Shown here one piece after another: positions 31,578 through 64,000 of a stretch of DNA of 64,000 bases (position 1 is the stretch's first letter; every line of letters begins with the position of its first letter). This DNA comes from Neocallimastix sp. 'constans' (lineage: Eukaryota). The position numbers and the translations under genes were made by a program. The notes below the pieces were generated by a model. It was not told the DNA's origin. It did no database searches and worked only from the letters and a program-made list of their open reading frames with translations. Location: the NCBI GenBank assembly GCA_050613775.1, contig JBODTK010000015.1, positions 558,001 to 622,000 of the forward strand. The letters are read 5' to 3'.

Positions 31578-32999
31578 ATGGAAGAAAACATAACTATTTA
31601 TATAAGTGAGTCTAATAAAGGAGAAGAACAAATCATTATTAATAAACAATATAAATTTAATTTTTCACATTCAAGGAAAGATAATTCAAGAGTTTATAAA
31701 TGTACCAAATATAAAAAAAATAATAAATGTAAATCTTTTATTATTTTAAATAATGAGAAAGAAATCTTAAAATATGAGAGTTTACATAATCATCCTGGAA
31801 ACGAATACAGTGTATCCCTATCTGTAATGAAACATAAAATTAAAGATGAAATTAAAAAACATTCAAATCCTTTTGATATAAAACGAAAAAGACCATATAA
31901 TGAAATTTCTAAAGAAATGGGATTTATATATCCGTGTCCAGAATATATTTCAGTTAAAACTCTAATATTAAGAAGTATTAATAAAAAACTACCATCCAAT
32001 GTAACAACTTTTAATGAAATTCCTAATGAATCTGAATATTATAAAACTGAACGAAATGAAGATTTTATGATATTCAAAAATTCTGATTTAGTAATTTTTC
32101 AATCCCCTTTTCAAGCAAAATTATTTAAGAAATATAATAATGATATATTTGTGGATGGTACTTTTTATATCGCACCTAAATTTAGTCAACAAGTGTTTAT
32201 TACTAGAACTTACGTTAAAGAATTGAATAGTTTTTATACTACTTCTTATGCAATATTAAGAAATAAAAAGCAAAAAACATATAAAATGTTATTCAATAAA
32301 TTAAAACAAAATTCTAATAATAATATTATAACTGAACCAAAAAATGTACATTGCGATTTTGAAAAAGGCATATCTAAAGCAGTTAAAAAAATATTTCCTA
32401 ATATAAATATTAAATACTGTATTTGGCATTATAAAAATTTATTAGAAATTAAAAAAAATGAATTGTGCCGTAATGAAGTGAACGATGATGAAAAAATATT
32501 TAATTATTACAAAGGAATTTCAAACTTACCATTTATCAACCCTGAATACATAATGGATATTTTTTCATTAATTAAAACTAAATCCATTGAAAAAAATTCT
32601 TGTCAATTTTTAAAATTTTTAGAATATTTTTATGAAACATATTTAATTGGTTACGATATGAAAAGTTGGAATTATTATAATAATATTGAACATATAACCA
32701 ATAATGCTTCAGAATCACTCAATAATTCTTTAAATAAACTATTTCCAATGAAACCAAATTTTTATGAATTAATAAATAAATTAAAAGAACAGGAACATTT
32801 ATTATATTATGATTACCAAATGAAAATAAAAGGAATTTGGAGAATGAAAAAAAAAATAAAAACAAAAACTGATGAAATTAATATCTTAATTGATAAATAC
32901 AAAAATAAAGAAGCCAAGTTAATTAATATTAAATATGATAGAAGTGATCTTACTAAATTGTGGTTTGAATGTTTAACTAATTTAAATAATATTTTATAA
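31578..32999 (+). CDS. MULE transposase, 473 aa (FLYWCH-like zinc finger plus DDE domain)
   Basis: Uninterrupted ORF with YKC..C..HNH, VDGTF, HCDFE, YCIWHYK (CxxH) and TNNASESLN. Confidence 0.93.
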   Translation: MEENITIYISESNKGEEQIIINKQYKFNFSHSRKDNSRVYKCTKYKKNNKCKSFIILNNEKEILKYESLHNHPGNEYSVSLSVMKHKIKDEIKKHSNPFDIKRKRPYNEISKEMGFIYPCPEYISVKTLILRSINKKLPSNVTTFNEIPNESEYYKTERNEDFMIFKNSDLVIFQSPFQAKLFKKYNNDIFVDGTFYIAPKFSQQVFITRTYVKELNSFYTTSYAILRNKKQKTYKMLFNKLKQNSNNNIITEPKNVHCDFEKGISKAVKKIFPNINIKYCIWHYKNLLEIKKNELCRNEVNDDEKIFNYYKGISNLPFINPEYIMDIFSLIKTKSIEKNSCQFLKFLEYFYETYLIGYDMKSWNYYNNIEHITNNASESLNNSLNKLFPMKPNFYELINKLKEQEHLLYYDYQMKIKGIWRMKKKIKTKTDEINILIDKYKNKEAKLINIKYDRSDLTKLWFECLTNLNNIL

Positions 33000-39921: not shown

Positions 39922-40571
39922 ATAGATAAATAAATAAATAAATAAATAGATAAATAAATAAATAGATAAATAAATAAATAATATTTTTAATTATTCATCA
40001 CCAAACAAAAAAAAAAATATTTAGTATTTGTAATTAATAATTAATTTAACTTTTATATTGTTTTTAATTTCATTTTTCATTTTATTTTTCATTTTATTTT
40101 TCTTCCTACAAAAATATTTAATACTATTCATGTTCATATTTATATTTATATTCATATTTATATTCATATTCATATTCATGTTCATATTTATATTTATATT
40201 ATTAATAAAATAATGTTATATATTGAAAAATAAATATTTAAATACTATTTTTATTATTAAAGTCATATAATATTATTGTATATAAATATAATATTTTTAT
40301 TATACTCTTATTTATTATTATTATTTATTTATTTATCAATTTATTAATTTATTAATTTATTAATTTATTTATTTATTATATATTTTTTTTCCTCTTTTCT
40401 TTTTATTATAAAAATTCTCTCTTTTATATAATATAAAATAATAATAATAATATTAATTTATAATTTTTACAATAAAAGTTTTATTTAAAATTAATAACTT
40501 TATAATATTTAAACTAAAATATAAATTTCGTTATTTTTTAATTTTTTTTTTTAATTGTTACTTAACTTAAT

Positions 40572-40770
40572 TTTTAGTAAAATCATTATCTGTTTCTCAG
40601 TATTTTTTTATCTTTCCATTTATATCTAATTTTAATAATTTTAGTAAAATCATTATCTGTTTCTCAGTATTTTTTTATCTTTCCATTTATATCTAATTTT
40701 AATAATTTTAGTAAAATCATTATCTGTTTCTCAGTATTTTTTTATCTTTCCATTTATATCTAATTTTAAT
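40572..40770. repeat. ~66-bp tandem repeat, 3 copies
   Basis: Unit TTTAGTAAAATCATTATCTGTTTCTCAGTATTTTTTATCTTTCCATTTATATCTAATTTTAATAA. Confidence 0.9.
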
Positions 40771-42447: not shown

Positions 42448-42621
42448 AATTTATTATTTAATTAATGCATCAGTAATTCACTATAATACTTTATTATGAA
42501 TTATATTTCAATTAAATTTTAACCTTAAAAAAAATATATAAATATATATAAAATGGAAATATATTCTTTTTTTTTCATTTTTATTCAACGTTTCTTTTAA
42601 TACTTTTAATATTATAATAAA

Positions 42622-45600
42622 ATGCTACTGAAATATTTTAAGTAATATATATATATTAATGCATAATTTAGTTGTTAAAGATATAATGTTTTACATAATT
42701 TTCTAAATTATTTAAATTTAATTTATAATTTCTTAATAAAAATATAGAATACTATATATTGTTTTATTTCAAGAATTTTTAATAAATTTTGTAAAAGCCC
42801 AGAGTAAATTACCTATAATTAAAATTTCAAATTTCATTATTTTATTTATTTTAAATATAAAAATAATTTAATAAATTATTATTTATTATTATTATTATTA
42901 TTTTAAAAATATGAATATGACTTAAATAACTAAAATTTATCATTAAATAACATATCGATATTATTTTATGCATAAATAATAAATATTTAATGTTAATATA
43001 TTTATTATTTCAATATATTTTTTAATTTTATTCCTTTTTTTATTTAAATAAAAATACAATAATTTAGATTTTAAGGAAGGTATGAAAAAATAATATATTT
43101 TAAAAAAATATATCAGTGATTTTTTTTTTTTTTACTTTGTAGTTTAGAGATAAAAATTATAAAGATATTTTTTATTTTTGTTATAGATATAGCTAATTTT
43201 TTAAATGGTTAAAAATAAATCATTTAAAAAATTAACTACAAAGAAATTTGAAATATTAGGTTTAATAAATTATATTTGTATTTAATTTTTGAGTTTATAA
43301 ATTTTATACTGAAATACTAAAAAAAAAAAAACTAATATATTTATAATATTTCTTTAGTTTGTTCTGCTGGTAAATTGGATAAATATATATATATATATAT
43401 ATACATTTAGTATATAATAAATTTAAAATAATTATATATATTAAAGTTATTGCCTTTTTTTACAATATTACTATATATTTAAATATATATATGTAAATAT
43501 TATTAATACAATATTTATGAATAGGGGTGGATACATGTACCGAGTGTAAATATCATTTATAATATATTGATATAATAAAATATATTATTATAATTAAATT
43601 ATTGTTAGAAAATGTTAAAGTTGCCTTTTTTATTATAATAATAATCTACTTATTAATATTTAACATTTCTTTTTAAATAATTTATTTGTAATTTTATAAA
43701 ATATTTGAAAAATATTGTAAAATAATAATAAAAATAAAGCCTGCAAGAGTTTTTGTAAGTCTTTCTTAATTATAAAATTTTATTTATTATTATTAATAAT
43801 ATTATATTTAATATAATAATATTATAAATTTTATCATTTTTAATTATATTTTTTATTAACACTATATATAATGCTTTTATTATAAAATATATTTAATAAT
43901 TTAATAAAAATTACATTTAATATTATTATTTTTTAAACACTTTAAAAAACATAAAATTTATTATTTAATATTAAAAATGGTTATTATATATATCATAAAA
44001 TTTATAATTTTATATTATAAACTATTTTACATATATGTAGTCGGTAAGTAAAACAACATAATTAAAAATATTTAATCATTATTTAAATTATTCTATTTAC
44101 TTCAATATTAAATGTATTTATTATATTTGGGCTAACTATATATATTTTCTATTTTATTTGCTTATTTAGAAGGTAGATATATATAAGTATTATTAAATAA
44201 TGTTCAATACATTTTTAATACATTCAGATTAATTATATATTAAATATATTAAATGTATTTTAAAATTTATTTGTTTAAATTCATTTATTTAAATAGTTCG
44301 TAAGTATAATTATATATTTAAATATATTATTAAAAAATAGTAATAATAAAAAAAAAACTAAAAATATTTGTTGAATAATACTTATTATAAATACTTTAAA
44401 TAAATAATTATTATAAAATTTTATATAAAAAAATATTTTATATAAATAGATCGTAAGTATAAATATATATTTAAATATACTATAAAATTTTTTTGAACGT
44501 TATTGTAAATAACATAAATTTATTATAAATATTTTTAAATATTTAAATATTATAAAATTTATACTACAAATTATTTTATATAAATAGCCTGTAAATATCA
44601 ATTTATGTTAAGTTATTAAATTAAATATTATTGAAATTAATTTGAAAAAACCATACATTTATTATAAATATTATAAATATTTAAATATTATTAATTATAT
44701 ACCACAAATTATTTCATATAAATAGGGAGTAAGTATAAATTTATGTTTAGTTATTATTAATAATTTTTGAAATTAATTGTAAAAAATATGTACTTACTAT
44801 CAATCAATCAAATATTTATTTATTAATTATTATCAATCATCCAAATATTTAATTATTATAAATTTTATAACACAAATTATTTCATATAAATAGCCTGTAA
44901 GTATAAATATACATTTAGATATTATTAAAATTTTTTGAATAATTTGTAAATAACATATAACTATTTTCAATTATTCATATAATTAATTAATATATATTTT
45001 ATATTACAAATCATTTTATTTAAATAGCCTGTAAGTATAAATATACATTTAGATATTATTAAAATTTTTTGAATAATTTGTAAATAACATATAACTATTT
45101 TCAATTATTCATATAATTAATTAATATATATTTTATATTACAAATCATTTTATTTAAATAGACGGTAAGTATGAATATATATTTAAATAGATCATTAAAA
45201 TTTTTTTTGAAGAAAACTGATTTATAGATAGCATATATTAATTATCAATCATGCAAATATTCGATTATAATAAATTTTATAATACAAATTATTCCATATA
45301 AATAGTCCGTAAGTATAAATATATATTTAGATATTATTAAAATTTTTTGAATAATTTGTAAATAACATATATCTATTTTCAATTATTCATATAATTAATT
45401 AACATATATTTTATATTCCATATCATTTTATTTAAATAGACGGTAAGTATAAATATAAATTTAAATGTATTATTAAAATTTTTTTAAAAACTAATTTTAG
45501 ACAACATATATTTATTATAAATATATTAAATTTTAACTACAAATTACTTTATCTAAATAGGCAGTAAGTATAAATATATATTTAAATGTATCATTAAAAT

Positions 45601-48600
45601 TTTTTTAAAAACTAATTTTAGACAACATATATTTATTATGAATATTTTAAATATTGAATAATTGTAAATTTTATAATACAAATTATTTCATATCAGTAGG
45701 GGGTAAATATGAATTTATGTTTAGTTATTATTAAATATTATTGAAATTAATATGTAAATAACATATACTTATTATCAATCATTCAAATATTTGATTATTA
45801 TAAATTTTGTTTTATAAATTCTTTTATATAAATAGGATGTAAGTATAAATTTATGCTTAAATATATTATTAAAATTTTTTAAAATTAATTGTAAAATAAT
45901 ATATAGATTATTAATCATTAAAGTATTTAATCCTTAAAATATTTAATTATTATAAAATAAAAGTAAATGACATATATTTATTATTAATCATTCATATATA
46001 TTCGATTATTATAAATTTTGCATTATAAATTGTTTTATATAAACAGGGAGTAAGTATAAATATAAAATTAAATTTATTATTAGTTTTTTTTGAAATTAAT
46101 TTGTAAATTATACTCATTTATCAACCATTCGAATATTTAATTATTAATAATTTTATAATATAACTGGTTTAATGTAAATAGCTCGTAAGTACAAATATAT
46201 ATTTAATTTTATTATTAAAAAATTTTTTAAATGAATTTTTAATAACATATATTTATTATCAATAATTCAAACATTTAATTATAAATTTTATATTAATAAT
46301 AATATATAAATAGCATGTAAGTATATTTATTTAAGTAGATTAATAAAATTTTTTTTAAAATTATATATATTTATAATTAATCATTTAAATATTTAACTAT
46401 TATAAAATTTATATTATAAATCATTTCATTAAAAATCATTTATATAATTTGATTATTATTATTAATATTCTATTACAAATTATTTCATATAAATAGGGCG
46501 TAAGTATAAATATATAATTAAATTTATTATTAGTACTTTTTTGAAATTAATTGTAAATAACCTAAATTTTTTATCAATCATTTAAATATTTAATTATTAT
46601 ATATTTTATATTATTAATTATACTATTTAAATTTAAATAGCTATTAGTAAGTATAAATGTTTATTTAACTTTATTATTAAAAATTGTCAAATATAATCAT
46701 AAATAACATATATTTATTATACATATCTTCAATATTTAATTATCTAAAAATTATTTCATATTAATAGATAGTAAGTATAAATATATTCTAATTTAATATA
46801 AATAATTTATTGAAATTAATGATAAATAAAAAATATTTATAATAAATTTTTTAAAATATTTAATTATTATAATATTTATTCAAAAATTTAATTATATAAA
46901 TAGGCCGTAAGTATAAATATATAATTAAATTTATTATTAATATTTTTTTTTTTTGAAAATAATAATAAATAACCTATATTTATTATAAATATTTTAAATA
47001 TGTAATTATTATAATTTTTATAAAAAAATATTTAAATAAATAGTAGGTAAGTATAAGTTTATACTAAAATGATATTAAAAATTTTTGAAATGCTATTGTC
47101 AATAAACATATATTTATTATCAATTAAATTAAAATATTTAATTATTATCAAATTTTTATTATAAATTATTTCATATAATAGCTAGTAAGTATAAGTATAA
47201 ATATATATATAAGTATATTATAAAAAATTTTAAAACTAATTGTATTAACATATATTTATTATAAATATTTTTAATATTTAATAATTATACAATTTATACT
47301 ACAAATTGTTTTATATAAATAGGCCGTAAGTTTAAATACATATATTAAGTATACTTTAAAAAATTTTTGAAACTAATTGTATTAACATATATTTATTATT
47401 AATTAAATTAAAATATTTAATTATCAAATTTTTATTATAAATTATTTCATATAATAGTTAGTAAGTATAAATATATATATAAGTATATTATAAAATTTTT
47501 TTGAAACTAATTGTATTAACATATATTTATTATAAATATTTTTAATATTTAATAATTATACAATTTATACTACAAATTGTTTTATATAAATAGGAAGTAA
47601 GTTTAAATATATATATATTAAGTATACTTTAAAAAATTTTTGAAACTAATTGTATTAACATATATTTATTATAAATATTTTTAATATTTAATAATTATAC
47701 AATTTATACTACAAATTACTTTATCTAAATAGACTGTAGGTTTTAAATATATATTTAAATGGATTATTAGAATTTTTTAAAATTAATTTTATAATAATAT
47801 TTATTATCAATCGTTCAAATATTTAATTATTATAAATTTTATAATATAAATTGTTTCATATAATTAGATTATAAAGTATAAATAATATACTTTAAAATAT
47901 TTATAAAAATTTAAAATTTTTTGAAATTAATTTTAAATATCATATATTTATAATAATTTTTTTATATATTAATTATTATAAATTTTTTTTTTACTATAAA
48001 TTATATAAATAAATAGGCAGTAAATATAAATAAATAATTAATTATATTAAAAATAACATTTGAAATTGTAAATAACAAATATTTTAATAATATTAATAAT
48101 ATTATATTACAAATTATTTCATATAAAAAGATGGTAAGATTAATTTTTTGTTTAATTGTTATTAAAAAATTTTAAAAATAATTGAAAATAACATATATTT
48201 ATTATAAATATTTTTAATATTTAATAATTATAAAATTTTAACTACAAATTACTTTATCTAAATAGGCAGTAAGTATAAATATATATTTAAATGTATCATT
48301 AAAATTTTTTTAAAAACTAATTTTAGACAACATATATTTATTATAAATATTTTAAATATTGAATAATTGTAAATTTTATAATACAAATTATTTCATATCA
48401 ATAGGGGGTAAATATGAATTTTATGTTTAGTTATTATTAAATATTATTAAAATTAATATGTAAATAATATATACTTATTATCAATCATTCAAATATTTGA
48501 TTATTATAAATTTTGTATTATAAATTCTTTTATATAAATAGGCCGTAAGTATAAATAATATACTTTAATATTATATTAAAAAATTAAAAATTTATAATAA

Positions 48601-51600
48601 ATAACATATATTTATCAAAAATATTTTCAATATTTGTTTTTATTAATACTATACTACAAATTATTTTATTATAAACAGCGTGTAAGTAAATATATAATTA
48701 AATATATAATAATTTTTTTTGGAATTAATTGTATAATATATATTACATATATTTATTTTCAATCATTCAAATATTTGATTATTATTAATTTTATGCTGCA
48801 AAATATTACATGTAAATAGGCGGTAAGTATAAATATATAATTAAATATTTTATTAATAGTTTTTAAAACTAATTATAAATAATTAATATCTATTATCAAT
48901 TATTCAAAAATTTAATTATTGTAAATTTTTTAAACTGTTTCATACAAATAGTTAGTAAGTATAAATAATATAATTAAATGTATTAATAAAATTTTTTAAA
49001 AATTAATTGTAAATAACATATATTTATTATAAATATTATAAATATTAAATAATTGTAATTTTTAAAATACAAATTATTTCATATCAATAGGAGGTAAATA
49101 TGAATTTTATGTTTAGTTATTATTAAATATTATTAAAATTAATATGTAAATAATATATACTTATTATCAATCATTCAAATATTTGATTATTATAAATTTT
49201 GTATTATAAATTCTTTTATATAAATAGGCCGTAAGTATAAATTTATCCTAAAAGATATTATTAAAAAATTTTGAAATTAATTGTATGTTGCATTTATTTA
49301 TTATTTATATTCTAAATATTTGATTATTAAAAAATTATGATACAAAATATTTTGAATAAATAGCCTGTAAGTATAAATTTATGTTTAAATATATTATTAA
49401 AATTTTTTAAAATTAATTGTAAAATAATATATAGATTATTAATCATTAAAGTATTTAATTCTTAAAATATTTAATTATTATAAATTAATATTATAAATTA
49501 TTTCATATAAATAGATAGTAAGTATAAATATATAGTTTAATATATATATAAAATATTATAAAATTAATTATTAATAAACTCTATTTGTTATAAATCATTT
49601 ATATAATTTGATTATTATTAATATTATACTACAAATTATTTCATATAAATAGAAAGTAAGTTTAAATATATATTTAAATATATTGTAAAAAAAAAAAAAG
49701 AAAATTAAAATAAATTGTAAATAAACATATATTTAATATAAATATTTTAAATATTTAAATATTATTAATATTATACTACAAATTATTTTGTATAAATAGA
49801 AAGTAAGTATAAATTTATATTTTTATATATTTTTGAAATTAATTGAAAATAACTAATGTTTATTATAAATATGTTAAATATTTAATTATTATTAATTTTA
49901 TACTACAAAATTATTTCATATAAATAGGTGGTATGTATAAATATATATTTAATTTTTATTATTAAAATTTTTTGGATGTAATTGTAAATAACAAAATATT
50001 TATTTATTATTAATTTTATACTACAAAATATTTCATATAAAATAGTTGGTATGTATAAATTTATGCCTGGATATTATTAAAAATTTTTGAAATTATTAAA
50101 ATTAATTTAATAAACATATATTTATATATAAATATATATAATTAATGTTTGATAATTTTATATTTTTAATTTTATATTGCTAATTGTTTCAAATGAAAAG
50201 AACGTGAGCATATATATAAATATAAATTTAAAAATATATTAAATAATTATATATGAGTATTAAAAAATATATTTAAAATATTTAATAAATTTTAATATTA
50301 TATAATTAATAATTCTGTATAAAATAGTCAGTAAGTATAAATAAATATATATTACTTTGTTAATAAAATTATTTAAATTATAATAATTAAAATACATTTT
50401 AAAAAAAAATTTAAAAAAATTATATATTAATTTATATATTTTATTTATTGTTACTCATAAATAGTATGTAAGTATAAATATATAGTAAATACATTATAAA
50501 TGCATTTAAATTTATTATAATTAATTTATTTATAAATTATATCTTAATAAATATTTTAAATAATAATATATATTTTTAATTTTTATTTAAAAATTTATTT
50601 TATATAAATAGTTGGAACGGATGGTAAATATGAAATAATGAAATTATATGAATTAATAATAAAAAAATTTTTTTTTAATAAAAGTGCTTAAAAAATATTA
50701 ATAATATTTAAATTAAATTGTACATAAAATATATCTAATTTATTTTAAAAAAAATAAAATAATTTAAAATAAAATTATTTTATTTTATTTTTTTTTTTAA
50801 ATAAAATGGTATATTTAAATAGAAGTAAAGATAATTATAAAGTTAAATTTATTTTATAAGTTTATAGAATATTTTAATAATATCTTATATATATTTAATT
50901 TTTACTTATTTTTATGATAATTTTAATTATTCCCAAATAAAAAATGTCAATAAAATATATCATAAAACTTTAAATATTAATATATTATAAAAGGTATATA
51001 TATTTATATAAATTTATTATAATTAATAATTCATAAAATATACATTTACTAATTATATTTATATTTAAATTTATTCAATACAATACAATATAAATATAAA
51101 TAGGATGTAAGTATAAATTATCATATTGAAATGTTAATTTAAACGTTATTAAATATAAATAAATCAAATATTCAAATCTTTAAAATTGATTTTTATAAAA
51201 TTAATATTATATCATAAATTAAATTTACTTTAATAGTAGGTAAATACTGAATATTAGAAAATTATCAAAATTAATAAAATTAAATATATATAAATTCATA
51301 TTTTAAATATTTTATCTATAAAAAAAATATTTTTTCTTATAAGATAACAAAAGTGGTAAGTATATTATAATATTATTATAAATAAATAAATATATATATA
51401 ATATTAATTAAAGCTATAAAAAATTAAAATAGAATTATTTTTTTTACTAACTTAATTCAATATTTTAAAAATAATTAATATTTATATTAATGTAAAGGAT
51501 ATAATGATTGTGTTAATCGTAAGTAAAATTAAAGTTTTTAAATAATAATAATTATTAAATAAAAAAAAATTAATATGAATAATATATTTAAATAATTATT

Positions 51601-54600
51601 TTAAAAACTAATTAAATTAAATAATATTAAATTATATATTATAAATGTTAAAATTTATTGAATTTTGATATTTAAATTGATACGAACATTTTTTTTTTCA
51701 TAAATTATATAATATAATTCTTAAAATATTATTTAAAGAATGCACTGGTAAGTATTAAAAAAATAATATATATATGTATATATATTTATTTATTTAAAAG
51801 TATTATAAATTCATCAAAATTAAAATTTTAAATAATATTTTTATCAATATATCAAATTTATATTACATAAATAATTCATATAATTAAATAATAATAATAT
51901 TTTATTATTATTATTATTATTATTATTATAATTATTATTATTATTATAATTATTATTATTATTATTATTTATAAATTAAAAATTTATTTTTTTGCTTCTA
52001 CTTTGTTGAATTTTTAAATATTTAATTATTTAGATATTTGTGGTAAGTAATTTTACTATAAATTTTTTTTCTTTTTAAAATAAATATATATATATATATT
52101 ATATATATATATAATTATTAATGATTTCATATAAAAATATTAGAAATATAAAAAAATAATTTTTAAGCATTAAAAATATTTTATTAATAATATTTTTTTA
52201 ATTAATTTACTATTTATTTTTATTATTTTTTATAATTTATAAATTATCATTAATAGAAACGGATAATAATTGTCAAACATGTAATTATAATAAATAATTT
52301 TTTATTTTTTTAATTAAAATATTTATATTAAATTCAATTAGAATTTTATATATTAAATTAATAAATATTTCTTTATATATTTTAAAAAAAATTCACTTTT
52401 AAAATGTGAATAGGTTGTAAATCTGGTAATTAAATATATATATATATACAAAATAAAATAAAAAAAAATTCTTTTTAAAGTTTTATATTTATAAGGATTA
52501 ACAATAAGAAAATAATTTTTTTTATTTTAATAAAAATTTTTTATTAAATTAAATGAAACATATAAAAAAAAATATATTTTAAAAATTTATAAAAAAATAT
52601 ACAACTCGATTAAAAATATTAAATAATTTAAAAAAAAAATTTAATTATTTAAAAAATTTATTTTAACATATATGTATCGAAAATAAAAATATATAATTTT
52701 TTTTTATAATTTAATATTTTTACATTTCTAATTTAAATTATAAGCTTGTGAAGAAGGTAAATAAAATTTTAATAATAAATTAATCATAATAATATGATAA
52801 TATAATATAATATAATGTGATATAATATGATAAAATTATTAAACATTTATTTTATTTTAATTTCTTTTCTATATGATTTATAAATTATCAATATTATTTA
52901 TCATTATATCTACAAATTTTAAAATATATTTTAACAAATAATTTTTAGGTCTTAAATCATTTAATAAAGGTATAAATAAATAATAGTATGATAAATATAA
53001 AATGAATCCAAAAAATAATATTTAAAATTTTTATAATTTTTATAATTTTTATTACAAAAAATAAATGTATTTTTTATGTTAATAAATATAATATATATAT
53101 ATTATATTATATATATTGTTTAATTTGATAAAATATAAAAATTAAAACATTTATATATTAAATTTTGAATCAATAAAAATAAAAAAAAAACTTAAATGAA
53201 TAAAATATAACAGATAATAATTCCAGAATAACAATAAAACCAAATTACTGCGAAACTTGTAAGTATTATTAATATATATTAAAATTAAGGATTAATCGTC
53301 AAAAATAAAAAAAAATAATAATAAAAGTAATAGTAATTCCTATTCCAAAATACCTAATAATATAATAATAATAATATAAATTTAAAGAAAAAAATATGAA
53401 AATATAAAAATGTAAAAATTAGTAATAAAGTTAAAAAATATACAAATATGTATTAATTAAAAATTATATAAGATTCATTAATGTAAAGAAAAAATTTAAA
53501 AATTTCTTTACATTAATGAAAGTTTTTTCTTTTATCATCAATATTTAAAAAAAAATATGTATATTTATTTAATTATTTAGATATAAAATATTTTTTTGAA
53601 ATTATAATTTTATTATTGAAATATATAATTATCTTTATATATATTTAGTTTATTTTAATGGATAAAAATATAAGAATTTAAATAATTAAACTATTTGTTA
53701 TTAATATATATTTTTATAATTAATATTAATAAACTTGAAAAATAATAATAATTATAATAATAAAAAACATAAATAAAATAAAATGAAAAGGTAAGCTATT
53801 TATTGAATGAATATAATAATAAATTAAAATTATAAAAATAATAATTAAATATTTTATATTAAGACATAATAATATTGAAATTCTTTAATAAATAATTAAA
53901 ATATTGATGTTTTTAACAAATATATTCTATTAATATATAAAATAAAACTCTATTATTTTATAATAATAAAATAATTTATATGATTAAATATTTTTTTTTA
54001 AAAAATAATAGTTTGTACAGAAGGTAAAAATATTAAATATAATTGAATGGTATTTTTATATTTTAAATATATTACAAAGAAGCTTTTCTAAAAATATATT
54101 AACTTGTTTCCTTTTTTATAATTAATTAATTAATTAATTATTTATTTATTTATAATAAAAGAATGGAATGGATGTGAAAACTATTTTAATGGTAAATAAA
54201 TATTATTGCTTAATTAAAATAAATAAACAAAAAATAATAATAGCATTAAAAATAATTATTAATATCTTTAATATTAATATTTATAAATATTATTATTTAA
54301 TGGAAAAATAATTATTAAATAAAATTTTAAATATATTTCAAAATATTTTAATTAATATATATTCGAAAATAAAAATATTTCAATTATATAAATGAATAAA
54401 AATATACTTATATATATTTTAATTTAATTAATAATTTATTTATTCATTGTTGATATTATATCCATTATTATTTGTAATGTATCATTAATTAATAAATGAT
54501 TTTATTCAAAGAAAATGATTGCGAAAAGGGTAAAATAAAATTATATTATTATATTTTAATTTTTTATTGAAATATTTATAATTTTTTTATTAGTAATAAA

Positions 54601-57600
54601 TATAAATTTATTTATTAGAAATTTATGAATAATTAATATATTTTTTTATAATAAATATTTTATTAAAATTAATTGATAAAATAGAAGAAGAAGAAAATGA
54701 AGAAGAGAATGAAGAAGAAGAAGAAGAAGAAGAGAATGAAGAGGAAGAAGAGGAAGAAGAAGAAAATGAAGAAGAAGAAGAAGAGAATGAAGGAGAAGAA
54801 GAAAATGAAGAGGAAGAAGAACAAGAGAATGAAGAGGAAGAAGAAGAAGAAGAAGAGAATGAAGAAGAAGAAGAAGAAGAAAATGAAGAAGAAGAAGAAG
54901 AGAATGAAGAAGAAGAAGAAGAAGAAGAGAATGAAGAAGAAGAAGAAGAAGAAGAGAATGAAGAAGAAGAAGAGAATGAGGAAGAAGAAAATGAAGAAGA
55001 AAATGAAGAAGAAGAAGAAGAAGAAGAAAATGATGAGGAAGAAAATGAGGAAGAAGAAGAGAATGAGGAAGAAGACGAGAATGAAGAGGAAGAAGAAGAA
55101 GAGAATGAAGAAGAAGAAGAAGAAGAAGAAAATGAAGAAGAAAATGAAGAAGAAGAAGAAGAAGAGAATGAAAAGGAAGAAGAAGAAGAAAATGAAGAAG
55201 AAAATGATGAGGAAGAAAATGAGGAAGAAGAAGAGAATGATGAAGAAGAAGAAGAGGAGAATGAAGAAGAAGAAGAAAATGATGAGGAAGAAAATGAGGA
55301 AGAAGAAGAGAATGAGGAAGAAGACGAGAATGAAGAGGAAGAAGAAGAAGAAAATGAAGAAGAAGAAGAAGAAGAGAATGAGGAAGAAGAAGAGAATGAA
55401 GAGGAAGAAGAAGAAGAGAATGAAGAAGAAGAAGAAGAAGAAGAAAATGAAGAAGAAAATGAAGAAGAAAATGAAGAAGAAGAAGAAAAAGAAGAAGAAG
55501 AAGAAAATGAAGAAGAAGAAGAAAAAGAAGAAGAAGAAGAAAATGAAGAAGAAAATGAAGAAGAAGAAGAAGAAGAAGAAAATGATGAGGAAGAAAATGA
55601 GGAAGAAGAAGAGAATGAGGAAGAAGACGAGAATGAAGAGGAAGAAGAAGAAGAGAATGAAGAAGAAGAAGAAGAAGAAGAAAATGAAGAAGAAAATGAA
55701 GAAGAAGAAGAAGAAGAGAATGAAAAGGAAGAAGAAGAAGAAAATGAAGAAGAAAATGATGAGGAAGAAAATGAGGAAGAAGAAGAGAATGATGAAGAAG
55801 AAGAAGAGGAGAATGAAGAAGAAGAAGAGAATGAGGAAGAAGAAAATGAAGAAGAAAATGAAGAAGAAGAAGAAGAAGAAGAAGAAGAAGAAAATGATGA
55901 GGAAGAAAATGAGGAAGAAGAAGAGAATGAGGAAGAAGACGAGAATGAAGAGGAAGAAGAAGAAGAAAATGAAGAAGAAGAAGAAGAAGAGAATGAGGAA
56001 GAAGAAGAGAATGAAGAGGAAGAAGAAGAAGAGAATGAAGAAGAAGAAGAAAAAGAAGAAGAAGAAGAAAATGAAGAAGAAGAAGAAGAAGAAGAAAATG
56101 ATGAGGAAGAAAATGAGGAAGAAGAAAATGAAGAAGAAGAAGAAGAAGAAGAAGAGAATGAAGAAGAAGAGAATGAAGAAGAAGAAGAAAATGAGGAAGA
56201 AGAAAATGAAGAAGAAAATGAGGAAGAAGAAAATGAAGAAGAAAATGAAGAAGAAGAAGAAGAAGAGAATGAAAAGGAAGAAGAAGAAGAAGAAGAGAAT
56301 GAAAAGGAAGAAGAAGAAGAAAATGAAGAAGAAAATGATGAGGAAGAAAATGAGGAAGAAGAAGAGAATGATGAAGAAGAAGAAGAGGAGAATGAAGAAG
56401 AAGAAGAGAATGAGGAAGAAGAAAATGAAGAAGAAAATGAAGAAGAAGAAGAAGAAGAAGAAGAAGAAGAAAATGATGAGGAAGAAAATGAGGAAGAAGA
56501 AGAGAATGAGGAAGAAGACGAGAATGAAGAGGAAGAAGAAGAAGAAAATGAAGAAGAAGAAGAAGAAGAGAATGAGGAAGAAGAAGAGAATGAAGAGGAA
56601 GAAGAAGAAGAGAATGAAGAAGAAGAAGAAAATGAAGAAGAAAATGAAGAAGAAGAAGAAAAAGAAGAAGAAGAAGAAAATGAAGAAGAAGAAGAAAATG
56701 AAGAAGAAGAAGAAAAAGAAGAAGAAGAAGAAAATGAAGAAGAAAATGAAGAAGAAGAAGAAGAAGAAGAAAATGAAGAGGAAGAAGAAGAAGAAGAAGA
56801 GAATGAAGAAGAAGAAGAAGAGAATAAAGAAGAAGAAGAAGAAGAAAATGAAGAAGAAGAGAATGAAGAAGAAGAAGAAGAGAATGAAGAAGAAAATGAA
56901 GAAGAAAATGAAGAAGAAGAGAATGAAGAAGAAGAAGAAGAAGAAAATGAAGAAGAAAATGAAGAAGAAGAAGAAGAAGAAGAAAATGAAGAAGAAAATG
57001 AAGAAGAAGAAGAAAAAGAAGAAGAAGAAGAAAATGAAGAGGAAGAAGAAGAAGAGAATGAGGAAGAAGAAGAGAATGAAGAGGAAGAAGAAGAAGAAGA
57101 AGAAGAGAATGAGGAAGAAGAAGAGAATGAAGAGGAAGAAGAAGAAGAAGAAGAAGAGAATGAAGAAGAAGAAGAAGAAGAAGAAAATGAAGAGGAAGAA
57201 GAAGAAGAAGAAGAGAATGAAGAGGAAGAAGAAGAAGAAAATGAAGAAGAAGAAGAAGAAGAAAATGAAGAAGAAGAAGAAGAAGAGGAGGAGAATGAAG
57301 AAGAAGAAGAGAATGAGGAAGAAGAAGAGAATGAGGAAGAAGAAGAAGAAGAAGAAAATGAAGAAGAAAATGAAAAAGAAGAAGAAAAAGAAGAAAATGA
57401 AGAAGAAGAAGAAGAAGAAGAAGAAAATGAAGAAGAAGAAGGAGAGAATGAAGAAGAAGAAGAAAATGAAGAGGAAGAAGAACAAGAGAATGAGGAAGAA
57501 GAAGAGAATGAAGAAGAAGAAGAAAATGAAGAGGAAGAAGAACAAGAGAATGAGGAAGAAGAAGAGAATGAAGAAGAAAATGAAGAAGAAAATGAAGAAG

Positions 57601-60600
57601 AAGAAGAAAATGAAGAAGAAGAAGAAAATGAAGAAGATGAAGAAGAAGAAAATGAAGAAGATGAAGAAGAAGAAAATGAAGAAGAAAATGATGAGGAAGA
57701 AAATGAGGAAGAAGAAGAAAATGAAGAAGAAGAAGAAGAAGAAGAAGAGAATGAAGAGGAAGAAGAAGAAGAAAATGAGGAAGAAAAGAATGAAGAAGAA
57801 GAAGAAGAAGAAGAAAATGAAGAAGAAGAAAATGAGGAAGAAGAAGAAAATGAAGAAGAAGAAGAAGAAGAGAATGAGGAAGAAGAAGAAGAAAATGAGG
57901 AAGAAGAGAATGAAGAAGAAGAAGAAGAAGAAGAAAATGAGGAAGAAGAGAATGAAGAAGAAGAAGAAGAAGAAGAAAATGAAGAAGAAGAAGAAGAAGA
58001 AGAGAATGAAGAGGAAGAAGAGGAAGAAGAAGAAAATGAAGAAGAAGAAGAAGAGAATGAAGGAGAAGAAGAAAATGAAGAGGAAGAAGAACAAGAGAAT
58101 GAAGAGGAAGAAGAAGAAGAAGAAGAGAATGAAGAAGAAGAAGAAGAAGAAAATGAAGAAGAAGAAGAAGAGAATGAGGAAGAAGAAGAGAATGAAGAGG
58201 AAGAAGAAGAAGAAGAAGAAGAAGAGAATGAAGAGGAAGAAGAAGAGAATGAAGAAGAAGAAGAAGAAGAGGAGAATGAAGAAGAAGAAGAAAATGAAGA
58301 AGAAAATGAAGAAAATGAGGAAGAAGAAAATGAGGAAGAAGAAAATGAGGAAGAAAATGAAGAGGAAGAAGAAGAAGAAGAAGAGAATGAGGAAGTAGAA
58401 AATGAGGAAGAAGAAAATGAGGAAGAAGAAAATGAAGAAGAAGAAAATGAAGAAGAAGAAGAAGAAGAAGAAAATGATGAGGAAGAAAATGAGGAAGAAG
58501 AAAATGAAGAAGAAGAAGAAGAAGAAGAAGAGAATGAAGAAGAAGAGAATGAAGAAGAAGAAGAAAATGAGGAAGAAGAAAATGAAGAAGAAGAGAATGA
58601 AGAGGAAGAAGAAGAAGAAAATGAAGAAGATGAAGAAGAAGAAAATGAAGAAGAAAATGATGAGGAAGAAAATGAGGAAGAAGAAGAAAATGAAGAAGAA
58701 GAAGAAGAAGAAGAAGAGAATGAAGAGGAAGAAGAAGAAGAAAATGAGGAAGAAAATGAAGAGGAAGAAGAACAAGAAGAAGAGAATGAGGAAGAACTAA
58801 ATGAGGAAGAAGAAGAAGAAAATGAGGAAGAAGAAGAAGAAGAAGAGAATGAAGAGGAAGAAGAAGAAGAAAATGAAGAAGAAGAAGAAGAGAATGAGGA
58901 AGAAGAAGAGAATGAAGAGGAAGAAGAAGAAGAAGAAGAAGAAGAGAATGAAGAGGAAGAAGAAGAGAATGAAGAAGAAGAAGAAGAAGAGGAGAATGAA
59001 GAAGAAGAAGAAAATGAAGAAGAAAATGAAGAAAATGAGGAAGAAGAAAATGAGGAAGAAAATGAAGAGGAAGAAGAAGAAGAAGAAGAGAATGAGGAAG
59101 AAGAAAATGAAGAAGAAGAAAATGAAGAAGAAGAAGAAGAAGAAGAAAATGATGAGGAAGAAAATGAGGAAGAAGAAAATGAAGAAGAAGAAGAAGAAGA
59201 AGAAGAGAATGAGGAAGAAGTAAATGAGGAAGAAGAAGAAAATGAAGAAGAAGAAAATGAAGAAGAAGAGAATGAAGAGGAAGAAGAAGAAGAAAATGAA
59301 GAAGATGAAGAAGAAGAAAATGAAGAAGAAAATGATGAGGAAGAAAATGAGGAAGAAGAAGAAAATGAAGAAGAAGAAGAAGAAGAAGAAGAGAATGAAG
59401 AGGAAGAAGAAGAAGAAAATGAGGAAGAAAAGAATGAAGAAGAAGAAGAAGAAGAAGAAGAAGAGAATGAAGAGGAAGAAGAAGAAGAAAATGAGGAAGA
59501 AAAGAATGAAGAAGAAGAAGAAGAAGAAGAAAATGAGGAAGAAAATGAAGAGGAAGAAGAACAAGAAGAAGAGAATGAGGAAGAACTAAATGAGGAAGAA
59601 GAAGAAGAAAATGAGGAAGAAGAAGAAGAAGAAGAGAATGAAGAGGAAGAAGAAAATGAGGAAGAAGAAGAAAATGAAGAAGAAGAAAATGAAGAAGAAG
59701 AAAATGAAGAAGAAGAAGAAGAAGAGAATGAAGAAGAAGAAGAAAATGAAGAAGAAGAAGAAGAAGAAAATAAAGAAGAAGAAGAAGAAGAAGAAGAAGA
59801 GAATGAGGAAGAAGAAGAAGAAGAAAATAAAGAAGAAGAAAATGAAGAAGAAGAAGAAGAGAATGAAGAGGAAGAAGAAGAAAATGAGGAAGAAGAAGAA
59901 GAAGAAGAAAATGAAGAAGAAGAAGCTGTTGAAGAAGAAGAAGAGAATGAAGAAGAAGAAGAAAATGAGGAAGAAGAAGAAGAAAATGAAGAAGAAGAAG
60001 AAGAGAATGAAGAAGAAGAAGAAGAAAATGAGGAAGAAGAAAATGAAGAACAAGAAAATGAAGAAGAAGAAAATGATGAAGAAGAAAATGATGAAGAAGA
60101 AAATGAAGAAGAAGAAGAAGAAGAAAATGAGGAAGAAGAAAATGAAGAAGAAGAAGAAAATGAAGAAGAAGAAGAAAATGAAGAAGAAGAAGAAAATGAG
60201 GAAGAAGAAGTAGAAAATGAAGAAGAAGAAGAAGAAGAAGAAAATGATGAAGAAGTGAATAAAGAAGAAGAAGAAAATGAAGAAAAAGAGAATGAAGAGG
60301 AAGAAGAAGAAGAAAATGAGGAAGAAGAAAATGAGGAAGAAAATGAAGAGGAAGAAGAAGAAGAAGAAGAGAATGAAGAAGAAGTAAATGAGGAAGAAGA
60401 AGAAAATGAAGAAGAAGAAAATGAAGAAGAAGAAGAAGAGAATGAAGAAGAAGAAGAAAATGAAGAAGAAGAAGAAGAAGAAGAAAATGAAGAAGAAGAA
60501 GAAGAAGAAAATGAGGAAGAAGAAGAAGAAGAAGAAAATGAAGAAGAAGAAGAAGAAGAAAATGAGGAAGAAGAAAATGAGGAAGAAAATGAAGAGGAAG

Positions 60601-63600
60601 AAGAAGAAGAAGAAGAGAATAAGGAAGAAGAAAATGAGGAAGAAGAAAATGAGGAAGAAAATGAAGAGGAAGAAGAAGAAGAAGAAGAGAATGAGGAAGA
60701 AGAAAATGAAGAAGAAGAAAATGATGAAGAAGAAGAAGAAGAAGAAAATGAGGAAGAAGAAAATGAAGAAGAAGAAAATGAAGAAGAAGAAAATGAAAAA
60801 GAAGAAAATGAAGAAGAAGAAAATGAAAAAGAAGAAGAAGAGAATGAGGAAGAAAATGATGAAGAAGAAAATGAGGAAGACAATGAAAAAGAAAATGAAG
60901 AAGAAAATGAAGAAGAAGAAGAAGAAGAGAATGAAAAGGAAGAAGAAGAAGAAAATGAAGAAGAAAATGATGAGGAAGAAAAAGAAGAAGAAGAAGAAAA
61001 TGAAGAGGAAGAAGAACAAGAGAATGAAGAGGAAGAAGAAGAAGAAGAAGAAGAGAATGAAGAAGAAGAAGAAGAAGAAGAAGAGAATGAAGAAGAAGAA
61101 GAAGAGAATGAAGAAGAAAATGAAGAAGAAGAAAATGAAGAGGAAGAAGAAGTAGAAAATGAAGAGGAAGAAGATGTAGAAAATGAAGAGGAAGAAGAAG
61201 AAGAAGAAGAGAATGAGGAAGAAGAAAATGAAGAAGAAGAAAATGATGAAGAAGAAGAAGAAGAAGAAAATGAGGAAGAAGAAAATGAAGAAGAAGAAAA
61301 TGAAGAAGAAGAAAATGAAAAAGAAGAAAATGAAGAAGAAGAAAATGAAAAAGAAGAAGAAGAGAATGAGGAAGAAAATGATGAAGAAGAAAATGAGGAA
61401 GACAATGAAAAAGAAAATGAAGAAGAAAATGAAGAAGAAGAAGAAGAAGAGAATGAAAAGGAAGAAGAAGAAGAAAATGAAGAAGAAAATGATGAGGAAG
61501 AAAAAGAAGAAGAAGAAGAAAATGAAGAGGAAGAAGAACAAGAGAATGAAGAGGAAGAAGAAGAAGAAGAAGAAGAGAATGAAGAAGAAGAAGAAGAAGA
61601 AGAAGAGAATGAAGAAGAAGAAGAAGAGAATGAAGAAGAAAATGAAGAAGAAGAAAATGAAGAGGAAGAAGAAGTAGAAAATGAAGAGGAAGAAGAAGTA
61701 GAAAATGAAGAGGAAGAAGAAGTAGAAAATGAAGAGGAAGAAGAAGTAGAAAATGAAGAGGAAGAAGAAGTAGAAAATGAAGAGGAAGAAGAAGTAGAAA
61801 ATGAAGAGGAAGAAGAAGTAGAAAATGAAGAGGAAGAAGAAGTAGAAAATGAAGAGGAAGAAAATGAAGAAGAAGAAGAAGAAAATGAGGAAGAAGAAAA
61901 TGAAGAAGAAGAAGAAGAAAATGAGGAAGAAGAAAATGAAGAAGAAGAAGAAGAAAATGAAGAAGAAGAAGAAGAAATTGAAGAGAATGAAGAAGAAGAA
62001 GAGAATGAAGAAGAAGAAGAGAATGAAGAGGAAGAAGAAGAAGAAAATGAAGAAGAAAAAAAAGAAGAGGAAGAAAATGAAGAAGAAGAAGAAGAGGAAG
62101 AAAATGATGAGGAAGAAAATGAGGAAGAAGAAGAAGAAGAAGAAGAAAATGAGGAAGAAGAAAATGAAGAAGAAGAAGAAGAAATTGAAGAGAATGAAGA
62201 AGAAGAAGAGAATGAAGAAGAAGAAGAGAATGAAGAGGAAGAAGAAGAAGAAAATAAAGAAGAAGAAGTAGAAAATGAAGAAGAAGAAGCTGTTGAAGAA
62301 GAAGAAGAAGAAACTGTTGAAGAAGAAGAAGAAAAAGAAGAAGAAGAAGAAAATGATGAAGAAGAAAATGAAGAAGAAAATGAAGAAGAAGAAGAAGAAG
62401 AGAATGAGGAAGAAAATGAAGAGGAAGAAGAAAATGAGGAAGAAGTGAATGAAGAAGAAAATGAAGAAGAAGAAGAAGAAGAGAATGATGAAGAAGAAAA
62501 TGAAGAAGAAGAAGAAGAAGAGAATGATGAAGAAGAAAATGAAGAAGAAGAAGAAGAAGAAGAGAATGATGAAGAAGAAAATGAAGAAAAAGAAGAAGAA
62601 GAGAATGATGAAGAAGAAGAAGAAGAAGAAGAGAATGAAGAGGTAGAAGAAGAGAATGAGGAAGAAGAAGAAGAAAATGAGGAAGTAGAAGAAGAGAATG
62701 AGGAAGAAGAAGAAGAAAATGATGAAGAAGAAAATGAAGAAGAAGAAGAAGAAGAGAATGAAAAGGAAGAAGAAGAAGAAAATGAAGAAGAAAATGATGA
62801 GGAAGAAAATGAGGAAGAAGAAGAGAATGAAGAAGAAGAAGAAGAAGAAGAAAATGAAGAAGAAAATGAAGAAGAAGAAGAAGAAGAGAATGAAAAGGAA
62901 GAAGAAGAAGAGAATGAGGAAGAAAATGATGAAGAAGAAAATGAGGAAGACAATGAAGAAGAAAATGAAGAAGAAAATGATGAAGAAGAAAATGAAGAAG
63001 AAGAAGAAGAAAATGAAGAGAATGAAGAAGAAGAAGAGAATGAAGAGGAAGAAGAAGAAGAAAATGAAGAAGAAGAAGCTGTTGAAGAAGAAGAAGAAGA
63101 AACTGTTGAAGAAGAAGAAGAAAATGAAGAAGAAGAAAATGAGGAAGAAGAAGAAGAGAATGAGGAAGAAGAAGAAGAAAATGATGAGGAAAATGAAGAA
63201 GAAGAAAAAGAGAATGAAGAAGAAAATGATGAGGAAGAAAATGAAGAAGAAGAAGAGAATGAAGAGGAAGAAGAAGAAGAAAATGAAGAAGAAGAGTGTG
63301 TTGGTTGTAATGAAGAAGAAGAGAATGAAGAAGAAGAAAATGAAGAAGAAGAAGAAGAAAATGAGAAAGAAGAAAATGAAGAAGTAAAAGAAGAAAATGA
63401 AGAAGAGAATGAAGAGGAAGAAGAAGAAAATGAAGAAGAAAATGAAGAAGAAAATGAAGAAGAAGAAAATATTGAAGAAGAGTGTGCTGGTTGTAATGAA
63501 GAAGAAAATGAAGAAGAAGAAGAAGAAGAGAATGATGAAGAAGAGAATGATGAAGAAGAAAATGATGAAGAAGAAAATGAAGAAGAAGTAATTGAAACGG

Positions 63601-64000
63601 AAGAAAGAGATATTGAAGGAGAAGAAGAAAATGATAAAGAAGAAAATGATGAAGAAGAAGAAGAAGAAGAAGAAAATAAAGAAGAAGAAGAAGAAGAAGA
63701 AGAGAATAAGGAAGAAGAAGAAGAGAATGATGAAGAAGAAAATGATGAAGAAGAAGAAGAGAATGAAGAAGAAGAAGAAAATGAAGAAGAAGAAGAACAA
63801 GAGAATGAAGAGGAAGAAGAAGAAGAAGAAGAAAATGAAGAAGAAGAAGAAGAAGAAGAAAATGAAGAAGAAGAAGCTGTTGAAGAAGAAGAAGAAGAAA
63901 CTGTTGAAGAAGAAGAAGAAAATGAGGAAGAAGAAAATGAAGAAGAGAATGAAGAAGAAGAAGAAGAAGAGAATGAGGAAGAAAATGAAGAGGAAGAAGA
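42622..64000 (+). CDS. Predicted ~68-exon micro-exon gene: secreted Cys-rich head with a 3-nt-exon array plus a giant Glu/Asn stalk (3' end outside the window)
   Basis: Exons read by hand (AG|exon|GT): 42622-42641, 42748-42803, 43068-79, 43358-69, 43525-45, 43740-54; 46 array exons from 44041 to 50467; then 50612-23, 51104-06, 51237-39, 51344-55, 51498-518, 51739-47, 52034-42, 52257-80, 52414-25, 52745-56, 52949-69, 53214-58, 54012-23, 54162-91, 54512-29, 54685-end. All-exon splicing is stop-free: MLLKYFKILYIVLFQEFLINFVKAQNFKEVCSAGVDTCTESCKSF-FEVHPWTSYVHGRGWTPWPINSLASLRNCNGRGPCVRGPYKKSVELI-FGTDGLDNKSGYNDCVNQCTDICETDNNCQTCCKSACEEGLKSFNKDNNSRITIKPNYCETFCTEEWNGCENYFNENDCEK-EEEENEEENE... Confidence 0.82.
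44030..50480 (+). repeat. Tandem array of ~135-bp intron/micro-exon cassettes (46 intact, 1 with a broken donor)
   Basis: Consensus ...TACAAATTATTTCATATAAATAG|NNN|GTAAGTATAAAT... Exons: 44041 TCG, 44170 AAG, 44297 TTC, 44450 ATC, 44588 CCT, 44726 GGA, 44894 CCT, 45028 CCT, 45162 ACG, 45306 TCC, 45440 ACG, 45561 GCA, 45700 GGG, 45836 GAT, 46047 GGA, 46182 CTC, 46314 CAT, 46497 GGC, 46641 CTATTA, 46768 ATA, 46904 GCC, 47044 TAG, 47182 CTA, 47323 GCC, 47458 TTA, 47594 GAA, 47733 ACT, 48017 GCA, 48131 ATG, 48266 GCA, 48405 GGG, 48542 GCC, 48679 CGT, 48820 GCG, 48952 TTA, 49091 GAG, 49228 GCC, 49364 CCT, 49515 ATA, 49653 AAA, 49800 AAA, 49928 GTG, 50046 TTG, 50201 AAC, 50328 TCA, 50465 TAT. Confidence 0.92.
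54685..64000 (+). repeat. Coding (GAA)n/AAT low-complexity repeat: ~3100 codons, mostly Glu with interspersed Asn
   Basis: Preceded by a TAG acceptor (54682-54684) in phase with the upstream exon. The in-register antisense Phe/Ile ORFs (54669, 58797, 59586) share one frame, so there is no frameshift. No sense stop seen. Confidence 0.9.

Follow-up and report, generated by a model that had tools for sequence, protein, structure and literature searches.

Codon-sized exons have been described before in fungi, and short symmetric exons in flatworms. The NLR-like nank (NACHT-ankyrin) genes of the truffle Tuber melanosporum contain tens of codon-sized (3-bp) mini-exons, and alternative splicing of these arrays has been reported (Iotti et al. 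2012, Fungal Biol 116:261, as cited in PMC4986451, PMC10197012, PMC3689799, PMC9815663 and PMC13449251). Schistosoma micro-exon genes (MEGs) have 10–20 exons, mostly of 15 bp, with introns of 0.1–5 kb and many spliced isoforms (bioRxiv 10.1101/2023.06.21.545858). In Coprinopsis cinerea, a genome-wide account gives 27 exons of 3 nt across 26 genes (PMC12230235); they are thus scattered, whereas the Neocallimastix gene described here has 46 by itself.

The window analysed is a stretch of 64,000 nt from Neocallimastix sp. 'constans' (contig JBODTK010000015.1, positions 558,001 to 622,000). Within it, 68 exons form a single open frame that starts with the ATG at 42622, enters a Glu/Asn exon at 54685 and is still open where the window ends, as an earlier note on this DNA had proposed for about 68 exons. 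The first intron is in phase 2 and every other intron in phase 1, and each of the 65 internal exons has a length divisible by 3, which bears out the same note for the short exons flanking the array. The features are listed below; P0121 is a database protein, the ORF of a 1,132-nt contig.

42622..42641, + strand: coding part of exon 1, with the ATG (joint 42641 to 42748, GT..AG, in 4/4 runs; P0121)
42748..42803, + strand: exon 2, 56 nt, a hydrophobic signal-peptide-like stretch (contig joint; hydropathy)
43068..43754, + strand: exons 3–6 (12, 12, 21 and 15 nt), Cys-rich head part 1 with 3 Cys (loose ends of contigs in 4/4 runs; P0121)
44041..50467, + strand: micro-exon array, 46 consecutive exons, 44 of 3 nt and two of 6 nt (motif counts, P0121, repeat analysis)
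45697..45702, + strand: 6-nt array exon with an extra upstream CAG acceptor (P0121)
46641..46646, + strand: the other 6-nt array exon (sequence; P0121)
47736..48016, + strand: 281-nt intron spanning two repeat units, with a dead micro-exon between them (repeat units; absent from P0121)
50612..54529, + strand: 15 more short phase-1 exons (3–45 nt, two of them 3 nt), Cys-rich head part 2 with 11 Cys (sequence; P0121; fold prediction)
54685..64000, + strand: giant Glu/Asn exon with 3,104 codons inside the window, the gene ending beyond it (frame; first ~57 codons in P0121)

The gene is real, expressed and spliced. P0121 is identical to the spliced model over 231 consecutive residues and holds all 46 array exons in genomic order, so that the frame and the order of the triplets are shown; its strain is not on record, and its match to the model throughout the array counts against a fast-evolving segment. 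In addition, each of four runs yielded one contig with the joint between exons 1 and 2 and a loose end consisting of exon 3, exon 4 and the first 6 nt of exon 5. This run evidence consists of assembled contigs rather than raw reads, extends over the gene's first 611 bases and comes from runs that carry no RNA label on record. The transcript reaches upstream at least to 42587. Downstream, the run contigs extend 476–503 nt beyond exon 2. In a model with all exons, the first repeat-caused branch lies at 476 (444-nt array) or 479 (447-nt), while an mRNA lacking the array would need to pass 27–43 branch points to reach the same extent. This reach therefore requires the array in the transcript. Contig extents alone cannot tell lengths of 444, 447 and 459 nt apart; P0121 gives 447. 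At tandem NAGNAG acceptors the first AG is used in 5/5 cases in P0121. P0121 also uses the upstream CAG at 45696, which makes exon 45697–45702 6 nt long. Further candidate exons, one of 8 nt at 47868, one of 2 nt at 50823 and one before the donor at 53791, were dismissed because of their frame and because P0121 does not contain them. A search of metagenome contigs with the spliced-anchor pattern gave 0 stretches, which carries no weight either way. The hidden, spliced protein-coding gene and the in-order joining of triplets foreseen from the letters alone are thus supported, and the gene is fungal, as had been guessed.

The array of AG|NNN|GT units lies where it had been claimed. Between 44001 and 50500 there are 36 copies of the strict motif YAG-NNN-GTA[AT]G on the + strand and 0 on the - strand, against a chance level of 0.044 on average (maximum 1 in 500 Markov-1 simulations). 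When spacer lengths of 0–15 nt were compared, only 3 nt was enriched (36; lengths 0, 6 and 7 occurred once each), and a three-unit array pattern matched 11 times versus 0 in 100 shuffles. The count of 46 exons predicted earlier stands; the predicted sizes (45 of 3 nt and one of 6 nt) do not, as P0121 contains two exons of 6 nt. Together the array exons amount to 144 nt over 6,427 bp and encode residues 46–94, a basic and aromatic, Gly-Pro-rich segment of 49 residues with 2 Cys. As all 46 are in phase 1, almost every residue of this segment straddles a splice junction. The 45 array introns measure 111–281 nt (median 134), with a strong GTAAGT donor after 35 of the 46 exons; no branch-point consensus was prominent in them (CTRAY in 13/45).

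The earlier note had likened this gene to MEGs, whose exons are skipped to vary the protein. Optional skipping, as reported for Tuber nank and schistosome MEGs, would yield many loop variants of which P0121 is merely the commonest. The exons would permit it: all internal ones share a phase and a length in multiples of 3, the frame stays open after 44 of 46 single skips, 31 of 46 skips would also alter a residue, and the published Tuber case is described, in the papers that cite it, as alternatively spliced. However, every array exon is present in P0121, the sole transcript across the array, and the four runs each give one unbroken contig of full extent. Single skips create stops in 2/46 cases, where shuffled arrays free of stops give 1.5 on average (P = 0.84), so that tolerance of skipping is not above expectation, and the donors are mostly strong. 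We therefore consider such a cassette unlikely and the MEG-like part of the claim unsupported by these data. There is likely a single main isoform with at most minor skipping; assemblies drop minor isoforms, so low-level skipping would be invisible in contigs.

As in MEGs, the gene has runs of short exons in multiples of 3. MEGs also have a signal peptide and a secreted product, to which the signal-peptide-like stretch suggested by hydropathy and the predicted secretion would correspond here. Unlike MEGs, it has 67 short exons, 46 of them of 3 nt, paralogous introns of ~135 nt and a giant Glu exon. Coding by short symmetric exons holds for the 174-residue head, whereas a single exon elsewhere has more than 3,100 codons. 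Sequence kinship with MEGs was neither expected nor detected; the host is not a flatworm, and P0121 has no relative at all among 1.84 billion protein representatives.

The introns of the array are paralogous, with a period of ~135 bp (a 137-bp repeat in ~26 copies); some pairs of intron units are 96–100% identical, and two-unit blocks were copied 5, 18 and 23 units apart. Introners, or self-copying intron elements, are near-identical introns scattered in unrelated genes genome-wide; within the window, the intron copies are in tandem only. This repeat structure makes it likely that the array expanded as a unit of one intron plus one codon was duplicated in tandem. Two units illustrate changes at splice sites. 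In exon 45697–45702 an A>G change made the upstream CAG acceptor and added 3 nt, and the related units at 48405 and 49091 are without this CAG and have 3-nt exons. The middle unit near 47868 kept its acceptor and lost its donor, which left the dead micro-exon. Among five unit pairs whose 60-nt flanks both lie within 15% of each other, triplets differ at 6/15 bases versus 30/604 in the flanks, a comparison that rests on 15 triplet bases from pairs that are not independent.

The head of the protein has 174 residues with 16 Cys in all and is followed by an acidic tail. Its N-terminus is hydrophobic by hydropathy, in line with the signal-peptide-like start noted earlier, and the product is predicted to be secreted. 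No anchor is visible because the C-terminus lies outside the window. The giant exon encodes 80% Glu and 15% Asn, with two CxxC motifs near 63297 and 63483. P0121 matched no Pfam family, NACHT, ankyrin and HET domains included (Glu/Asn repeat makes up what else the window holds of the gene), gave no usable match in the Atlas and had no match below E 0.9 among PDB sequences. Among 1.84 billion protein representatives its one match was P0121 itself, which agrees with the expectation that ordinary annotation misses the gene. No orthologue or allele was found among these representatives, and no Neocallimastix-like locus among the metagenome matches listed; none of 7,978 candidates matched the CxxC-bearing portion of the Glu exon. 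Folding from the single sequence gave poor models (mean pLDDT 41 and 58), with head part 2 predicted as a helical hairpin. With the predicted fold, Foldseek returned nothing at E<=0.001, and VIA-align generic helical matches only (best Z 6.2). A likeness of loop parts to ChW or tenascin-type EGF repeats was dropped for want of Pfam support.

Neutral proliferation, in which a self-copying intron-plus-triplet satellite riddled a tolerant linker and the peptide is only a stop-free spacer, would account for paralogous introns, one dead unit, the missing homologues and a poorly ordered array segment (pLDDT 27–40); the open frame of the array is by itself weak evidence, since 16% of order shuffles are stop-free. 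However, the triplets hold 51% GC amid introns of 9% GC and diverge more quickly than the sequence beside them, Trp, Tyr, His, Pro and Gly abound in the segment, which also has a Cys pair and is not linker-like, and 45 extra introns were retained with strong sites; we regard this explanation as quite improbable. A non-coding satellite that mimics splice sites is hardly credible: the array is a tandem repeat, and bacterial repeats with a fixed triplet yield similar motifs (42/44 prokaryote matches), but P0121 and the spliced contigs of 4/4 runs refute it unless P0121 is not RNA-derived, and even a retrocopy would reveal splicing.

We thus favour, as the probable explanation, an expressed gene in which 46 ordered exons of 3 or 6 nt encode 49 residues of a protein predicted to be secreted, with an array likely grown by tandem duplication and a loop likely evolving one codon at a time. 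Each ~135-nt intron would be recognised singly, by intron definition, and neighbours removed in succession, because a 3-nt exon is too small for two spliceosomes; the first AG of an acceptor would be used. Near-identical units could undergo unequal crossing-over and conversion, by which single codons would be added, swapped or dropped with the frame intact, and splice-site mutations could gain or delete a residue. The product may be an extracellular surface or matrix protein for binding or recognition, a role that we only infer. Its basic and aromatic loop might be clamped between helices stapled by disulfides and sit at the end of a very long polyanionic stalk.

The layout was thought to be undescribed, which the Tuber arrays, as cited, contradict: there too, a single fungal gene has tens of 3-nt exons that are spliced into a protein segment. 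Unlike Tuber nank, the Neocallimastix gene belongs to an early-diverging anaerobic gut fungus, is a single gene in the window, encodes a predicted secreted orphan without a NACHT, ANK or HET domain (its C-terminus lying beyond the window) and shows one full-inclusion isoform rather than the reported alternative splicing. Its phase 1 also means that its exons, in contrast to those of Tuber nank, are not codons. What is new here is the early-diverging host, the predicted secreted orphan with a 16-Cys head and a Glu tail of more than 3,100 residues, the phase, and the proof of complete in-order inclusion. The spliceosome is able to join 46 successive exons of 3–6 nt in the correct order, and exon-size limits and splicing order become directly testable in one transcript. 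The layout published for one truffle gene family thereby reaches a distant phylum of fungi, as well as a different phase and a different class of protein. If the loop is polymorphic, this would be a means by which rumen fungi diversify a surface protein.

Among the metagenome matches listed, intron-plus-codon arrays were found in 72 of 119 loci. None of the loci listed is below 20% GC, so no gut-fungus relative is among them. In three (L027, L035 and L015), arrays with ~70-bp units adjoin HET/NACHT genes. Like the Neocallimastix array, these consist of paralogous intron units parted by variable triplets; unlike it, they are mostly in phase 0, with ~70-bp units, clear CTRAY branch sites and 20–53% GC. 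BLASTN found no match between them and the Neocallimastix array, and their origins are therefore likely independent. Together with our gene, the 72 arrays suggest a common blind spot, where genes resemble AT-rich satellites and their proteins go unannotated. A wider proposal, which we offer tentatively and with less than even confidence, is that intron-plus-triplet arrays are a recurrent, largely unannotated eukaryotic device that evolves a binding loop residue by residue. The present gene would be an independent extracellular version, in which a giant acidic stalk carries a disulfide scaffold with a hypervariable segment resembling an antibody loop, and it would have the longest transcript-proven run of sub-7-nt exons found in our searches. 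As a point against the reading favoured for this gene, third codon positions are G or C in 24/49 codons of the array versus 20/101 in the other head exons, a level that protein-level selection alone does not explain.

The array of codon-sized exons in the window belongs to a gene that is transcribed and spliced. A search with the exon-2 reading frame led, from three candidates, to one protein, P0121 (JGI/IMG; 248 aa, single-member cluster), encoded on a 1,132-nt contig. As 1,132 nt is too short for the 12-kb locus, we infer that this contig is a spliced copy of it. P0121 agrees with the exon model of the earlier note over 57 residues and then has one residue more; with an upstream CAG acceptor, which makes exon 45697–45702 6 nt long, the two are identical over 231 consecutive residues of the 240 counted from Met, and the three remaining differences lie at the end, within the repeat of the Glu-rich tail. 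P0121 also carries 8 additional N-terminal residues, the last three of which agree with the window. In the window, a stop sits five codons ahead of the ATG, and the extension is likely a strain difference or a misassembly. As P0121 matches the model over 231 residues, at least one transcript contains every one of the 46 array exons, together with all other short exons, in genomic order.

Fifteen runs under the same species label were kept as contigs, with the RNA type guessed, and four of them were compared with 42500–43110. In each of the four, a single contig carries the 42641–42748 splice (GT..AG), leaving out 106 nt, and its next 30 letters, unaligned there, are those of exons 3 and 4 plus the first 6 nt of exon 5. 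Beyond exon 2, these contigs extend for 503, 491, 478 and 476 nt. When the modelled mRNA is drawn as a de Bruijn graph, the first branch lies 32 nt inside the Glu repeat, which is 476 nt past exon 2 for an internal-exon total of 444 nt. If the mRNA lacked the array (303 nt), contigs of these lengths would need to cross 27–43 branch points, and a crude likelihood over internal-exon totals ranks 444, 447 and 459 nt among the best values, with 303 nt far lower. The four lengths fit full inclusion as the main form. The earlier note had proposed a hidden, spliced gene whose triplets are joined in genomic order between the flanking exons: P0121 bears out both, and the spliced contigs of all four runs bear out the first.

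The array was found where that note had placed it, and its in-frame chain held with two small corrections: exon 45697–45702 has 6 nt, and exon 1 ends at 42641, before an intron in phase 2. Between 44001 and 50500, YAG-NNN-GTA[AT]G occurs 36 times on the forward strand and never on the reverse, against an expected 0.044 (500 Markov-1 simulations, maximum 1), and 3 nt is the only enriched spacing between AG and GT. In the 68-exon model, 65 of 65 internal exons are divisible by 3 in length and in phase 1, and the spliced model runs for 3,278 codons without a stop as far as the window end. The open frame alone is weak evidence, as the array stays free of stops in 16% of trials with shuffled exon order (2.4% for all internal exons). 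GC content is 51% in array exons and 9% in array introns. Donors are GTAAGT in 35/46 cases and acceptors AATAG in 39/46, and P0121 uses the first AG at five of five tandem NAGNAG acceptors. CTRAY is present in only 13/45 array introns, and no clear branch-point consensus emerges. GC3 is higher in the array than in the other head exons (24/49 vs 20/101, P=0.0005), beyond what protein-level selection alone would account for; at fourfold sites, GC is 12/22 vs 7/27 (P=0.08). Downstream, an AG|GTAAGC site at 53788–53796, within a 753-nt intron and with no usable upstream exon, may serve as a zero-length, recursive splice site; a 480-nt intron holds a weaker AG|GTATAT at 50993.

For short introns, recognition works across the intron, and exon size is of little weight if neighbouring introns are removed in turn. 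Array splicing most likely proceeds in this manner, by intron definition and one neighbouring intron after another. With exactly three coding bases in each unit, unit duplication, deletion or conversion would retain the frame, and in phase 1 such a change would usually alter a neighbouring residue too. Single-exon skips leave the frame open in 44/46 cases, and 31/46 delete one residue and substitute another. Skipping of array exons was not seen in P0121, the one transcript read across the array, and the two single-skip stops compare with a mean of 1.5 among stop-free shuffled arrays (P=0.84). RNA-level skipping is possible, with no sign of selection for it; the protein variation through skipping suggested by analogy with Schistosoma micro-exon genes (MEGs) was not observed.

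The 45 array introns have a mean identity of 0.69, vs 0.58 in shuffled controls and 0.60 when compared with introns of similar size beyond the array, and by this similarity are judged paralogues. Tandem Repeats Finder (TRF) reports a period of 137 bp, repeated about 26 times. Intron pairs 12/13 and 36/41 are 100% identical, and two-unit blocks recur at distances of 5, 18 and 23 units, matching the repeated Gly-x-Gly motifs of the peptide. The unit at 45697 gained a codon via a new acceptor, compared with its sister units at 48405 and 49091, and a unit near 47868 lost its donor and is now intronic (281-nt intron). In the five unit pairs, of 1,035, with both 60-nt flanks within 15%, triplets differ at 6/15 bases and flanks at 30/604; as these pairs are not independent, the greater divergence of triplets is suggestive only.

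A generic three-unit pattern matched at least 125 stretches in metagenome contigs. From the matches listed, 122 loci were taken and three duplicates dropped; the remaining 119 comprise 72 arrays with 9–80 variable triplets, 19 shorter ones, 14 with a fixed triplet and 14 short satellites. The 72 listed arrays, most with units of about 70 bp, contain 21 phase-0 stops in 1,537 triplets vs 107 expected from composition, and 60 have none; at 1,300 junctions, phases 1 and 2 give 194 and 44 stops. CTRAY precedes 1,305/1,779 acceptors in listed arrays, fixed-triplet and duplicate loci included. Among 101 flanking ORFs from 32 larger listed loci, 10 have Pfam matches and 91 have none. A HET domain lies directly downstream of the 3-nt exon array in L027 and L035, and NACHT lies upstream in L015, like the truffle (Tuber) case. 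The hosts of these arrays are likely fungi. None of the metagenome loci listed gave a BLASTN match to the window array. The arrays in L018:4055–9823 (+), L064, L074, L070 and L047, with about 80, 72, 57, 51 and 49 variable triplets in intron units of about 70 bp, are mostly open in phase 0; flanking ORFs of L018, L064, L074 and L047 have no Pfam match. L029, L036, L076, L077 and L093, on short, marine-looking contigs with one assembly prefix, form a family: their intron-like units are 128–129 bp long, their triplets vary, and phases 0 and 2 are open.

In the prokaryote-genome control, the same pattern gave 44 stretches, 42 with a fixed triplet and two satellites, and no variable-triplet array. 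The fixed-triplet matches are mostly one cyanobacterial repeat-spacer array, presumably CRISPR-like, which is a false-positive class for splice-pattern scans. Its repeat, with TAG-GGA-GTAAGT mimicking the splice pattern, accounts for most of L124–L166 and for L002, L041 and L085.

The earlier note knew of no description of such an architecture, which does not stand. Passages in five papers (PMC4986451, PMC3689799, PMC10197012, PMC9815663, PMC13449251) cite Iotti et al. 2012 for NACHT-ankyrin (nank) genes of Tuber melanosporum with 'tens' or 'dozens' of mini-exons that are codon-sized and alternatively spliced. Any record claim for the present array depends on exon counts and phase in Iotti et al. 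2012, known here via these citing papers. Isolated fungal 3-nt exons are described in PMC12230235, and MEG features in bioRxiv 10.1101/2023.06.21.545858. The window gene resembles the nank and MEG families in build and is a member of neither. A literature search found no publication on microexons in Neocallimastix and, at the level of titles and listings, no microexon array described for a gut fungus or for secreted fungal proteins. The architecture is a variant of a rare type that was already known, rather than a new category.

The predicted protein begins with a hydrophobic N-terminus, followed by a head of 150 residues that contains 16 Cys and then by at least 3,104 residues that are 80% Glu. 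The array-coded segment (6 basic, 2 acidic, 9 aromatic or His, 10 Gly/Pro and 2 Cys by a 48-residue count) is flanked on both sides by acidic Cys-rich parts; its fold prediction has low confidence, and the second Cys-rich part is predicted to form a helical hairpin (pLDDT 73–76). Family, sequence and structure searches returned no family, relative or fold. From this anatomy, our best guess is that the product may be a surface or matrix protein in which an acidic stalk displays a variable loop for binding. The giant exon (54685–64000), a single exon of more than 9.3 kb with GC skew near 1 and 80% Glu, has its start duplicated about 3.3 kb downstream; longer internal blocks are also repeated. 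It further contains:
near 63297 and 63483, forward strand: two CxxC motifs

The first 39 kb of the window contain retroelement- and transposase-like ORFs, named from motifs apart from the MULE-type transposase ORF at 31578–32996, which was named by search. The best named matches of the latter are Neocallimastix lanati (96%), N. californiae and N. 'constans' (up to 99% over part). Because this ORF matches best there, its sequence assigns the host to Neocallimastix, an anaerobic gut fungus, in agreement with the earlier attribution as 'probably fungal'. Positions 1–38800 are a transposon nest, densely packed with gypsy-like, copia-like and MULE/FLYWCH ORFs, many of which are broken. Two features lie in and beyond this nest:
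2636–7534, reverse strand: intact-looking gag-pol within the transposon nest (1–38800)
40556–40770: three near-identical copies of a unit of about 79 bp, in the upstream intergenic region
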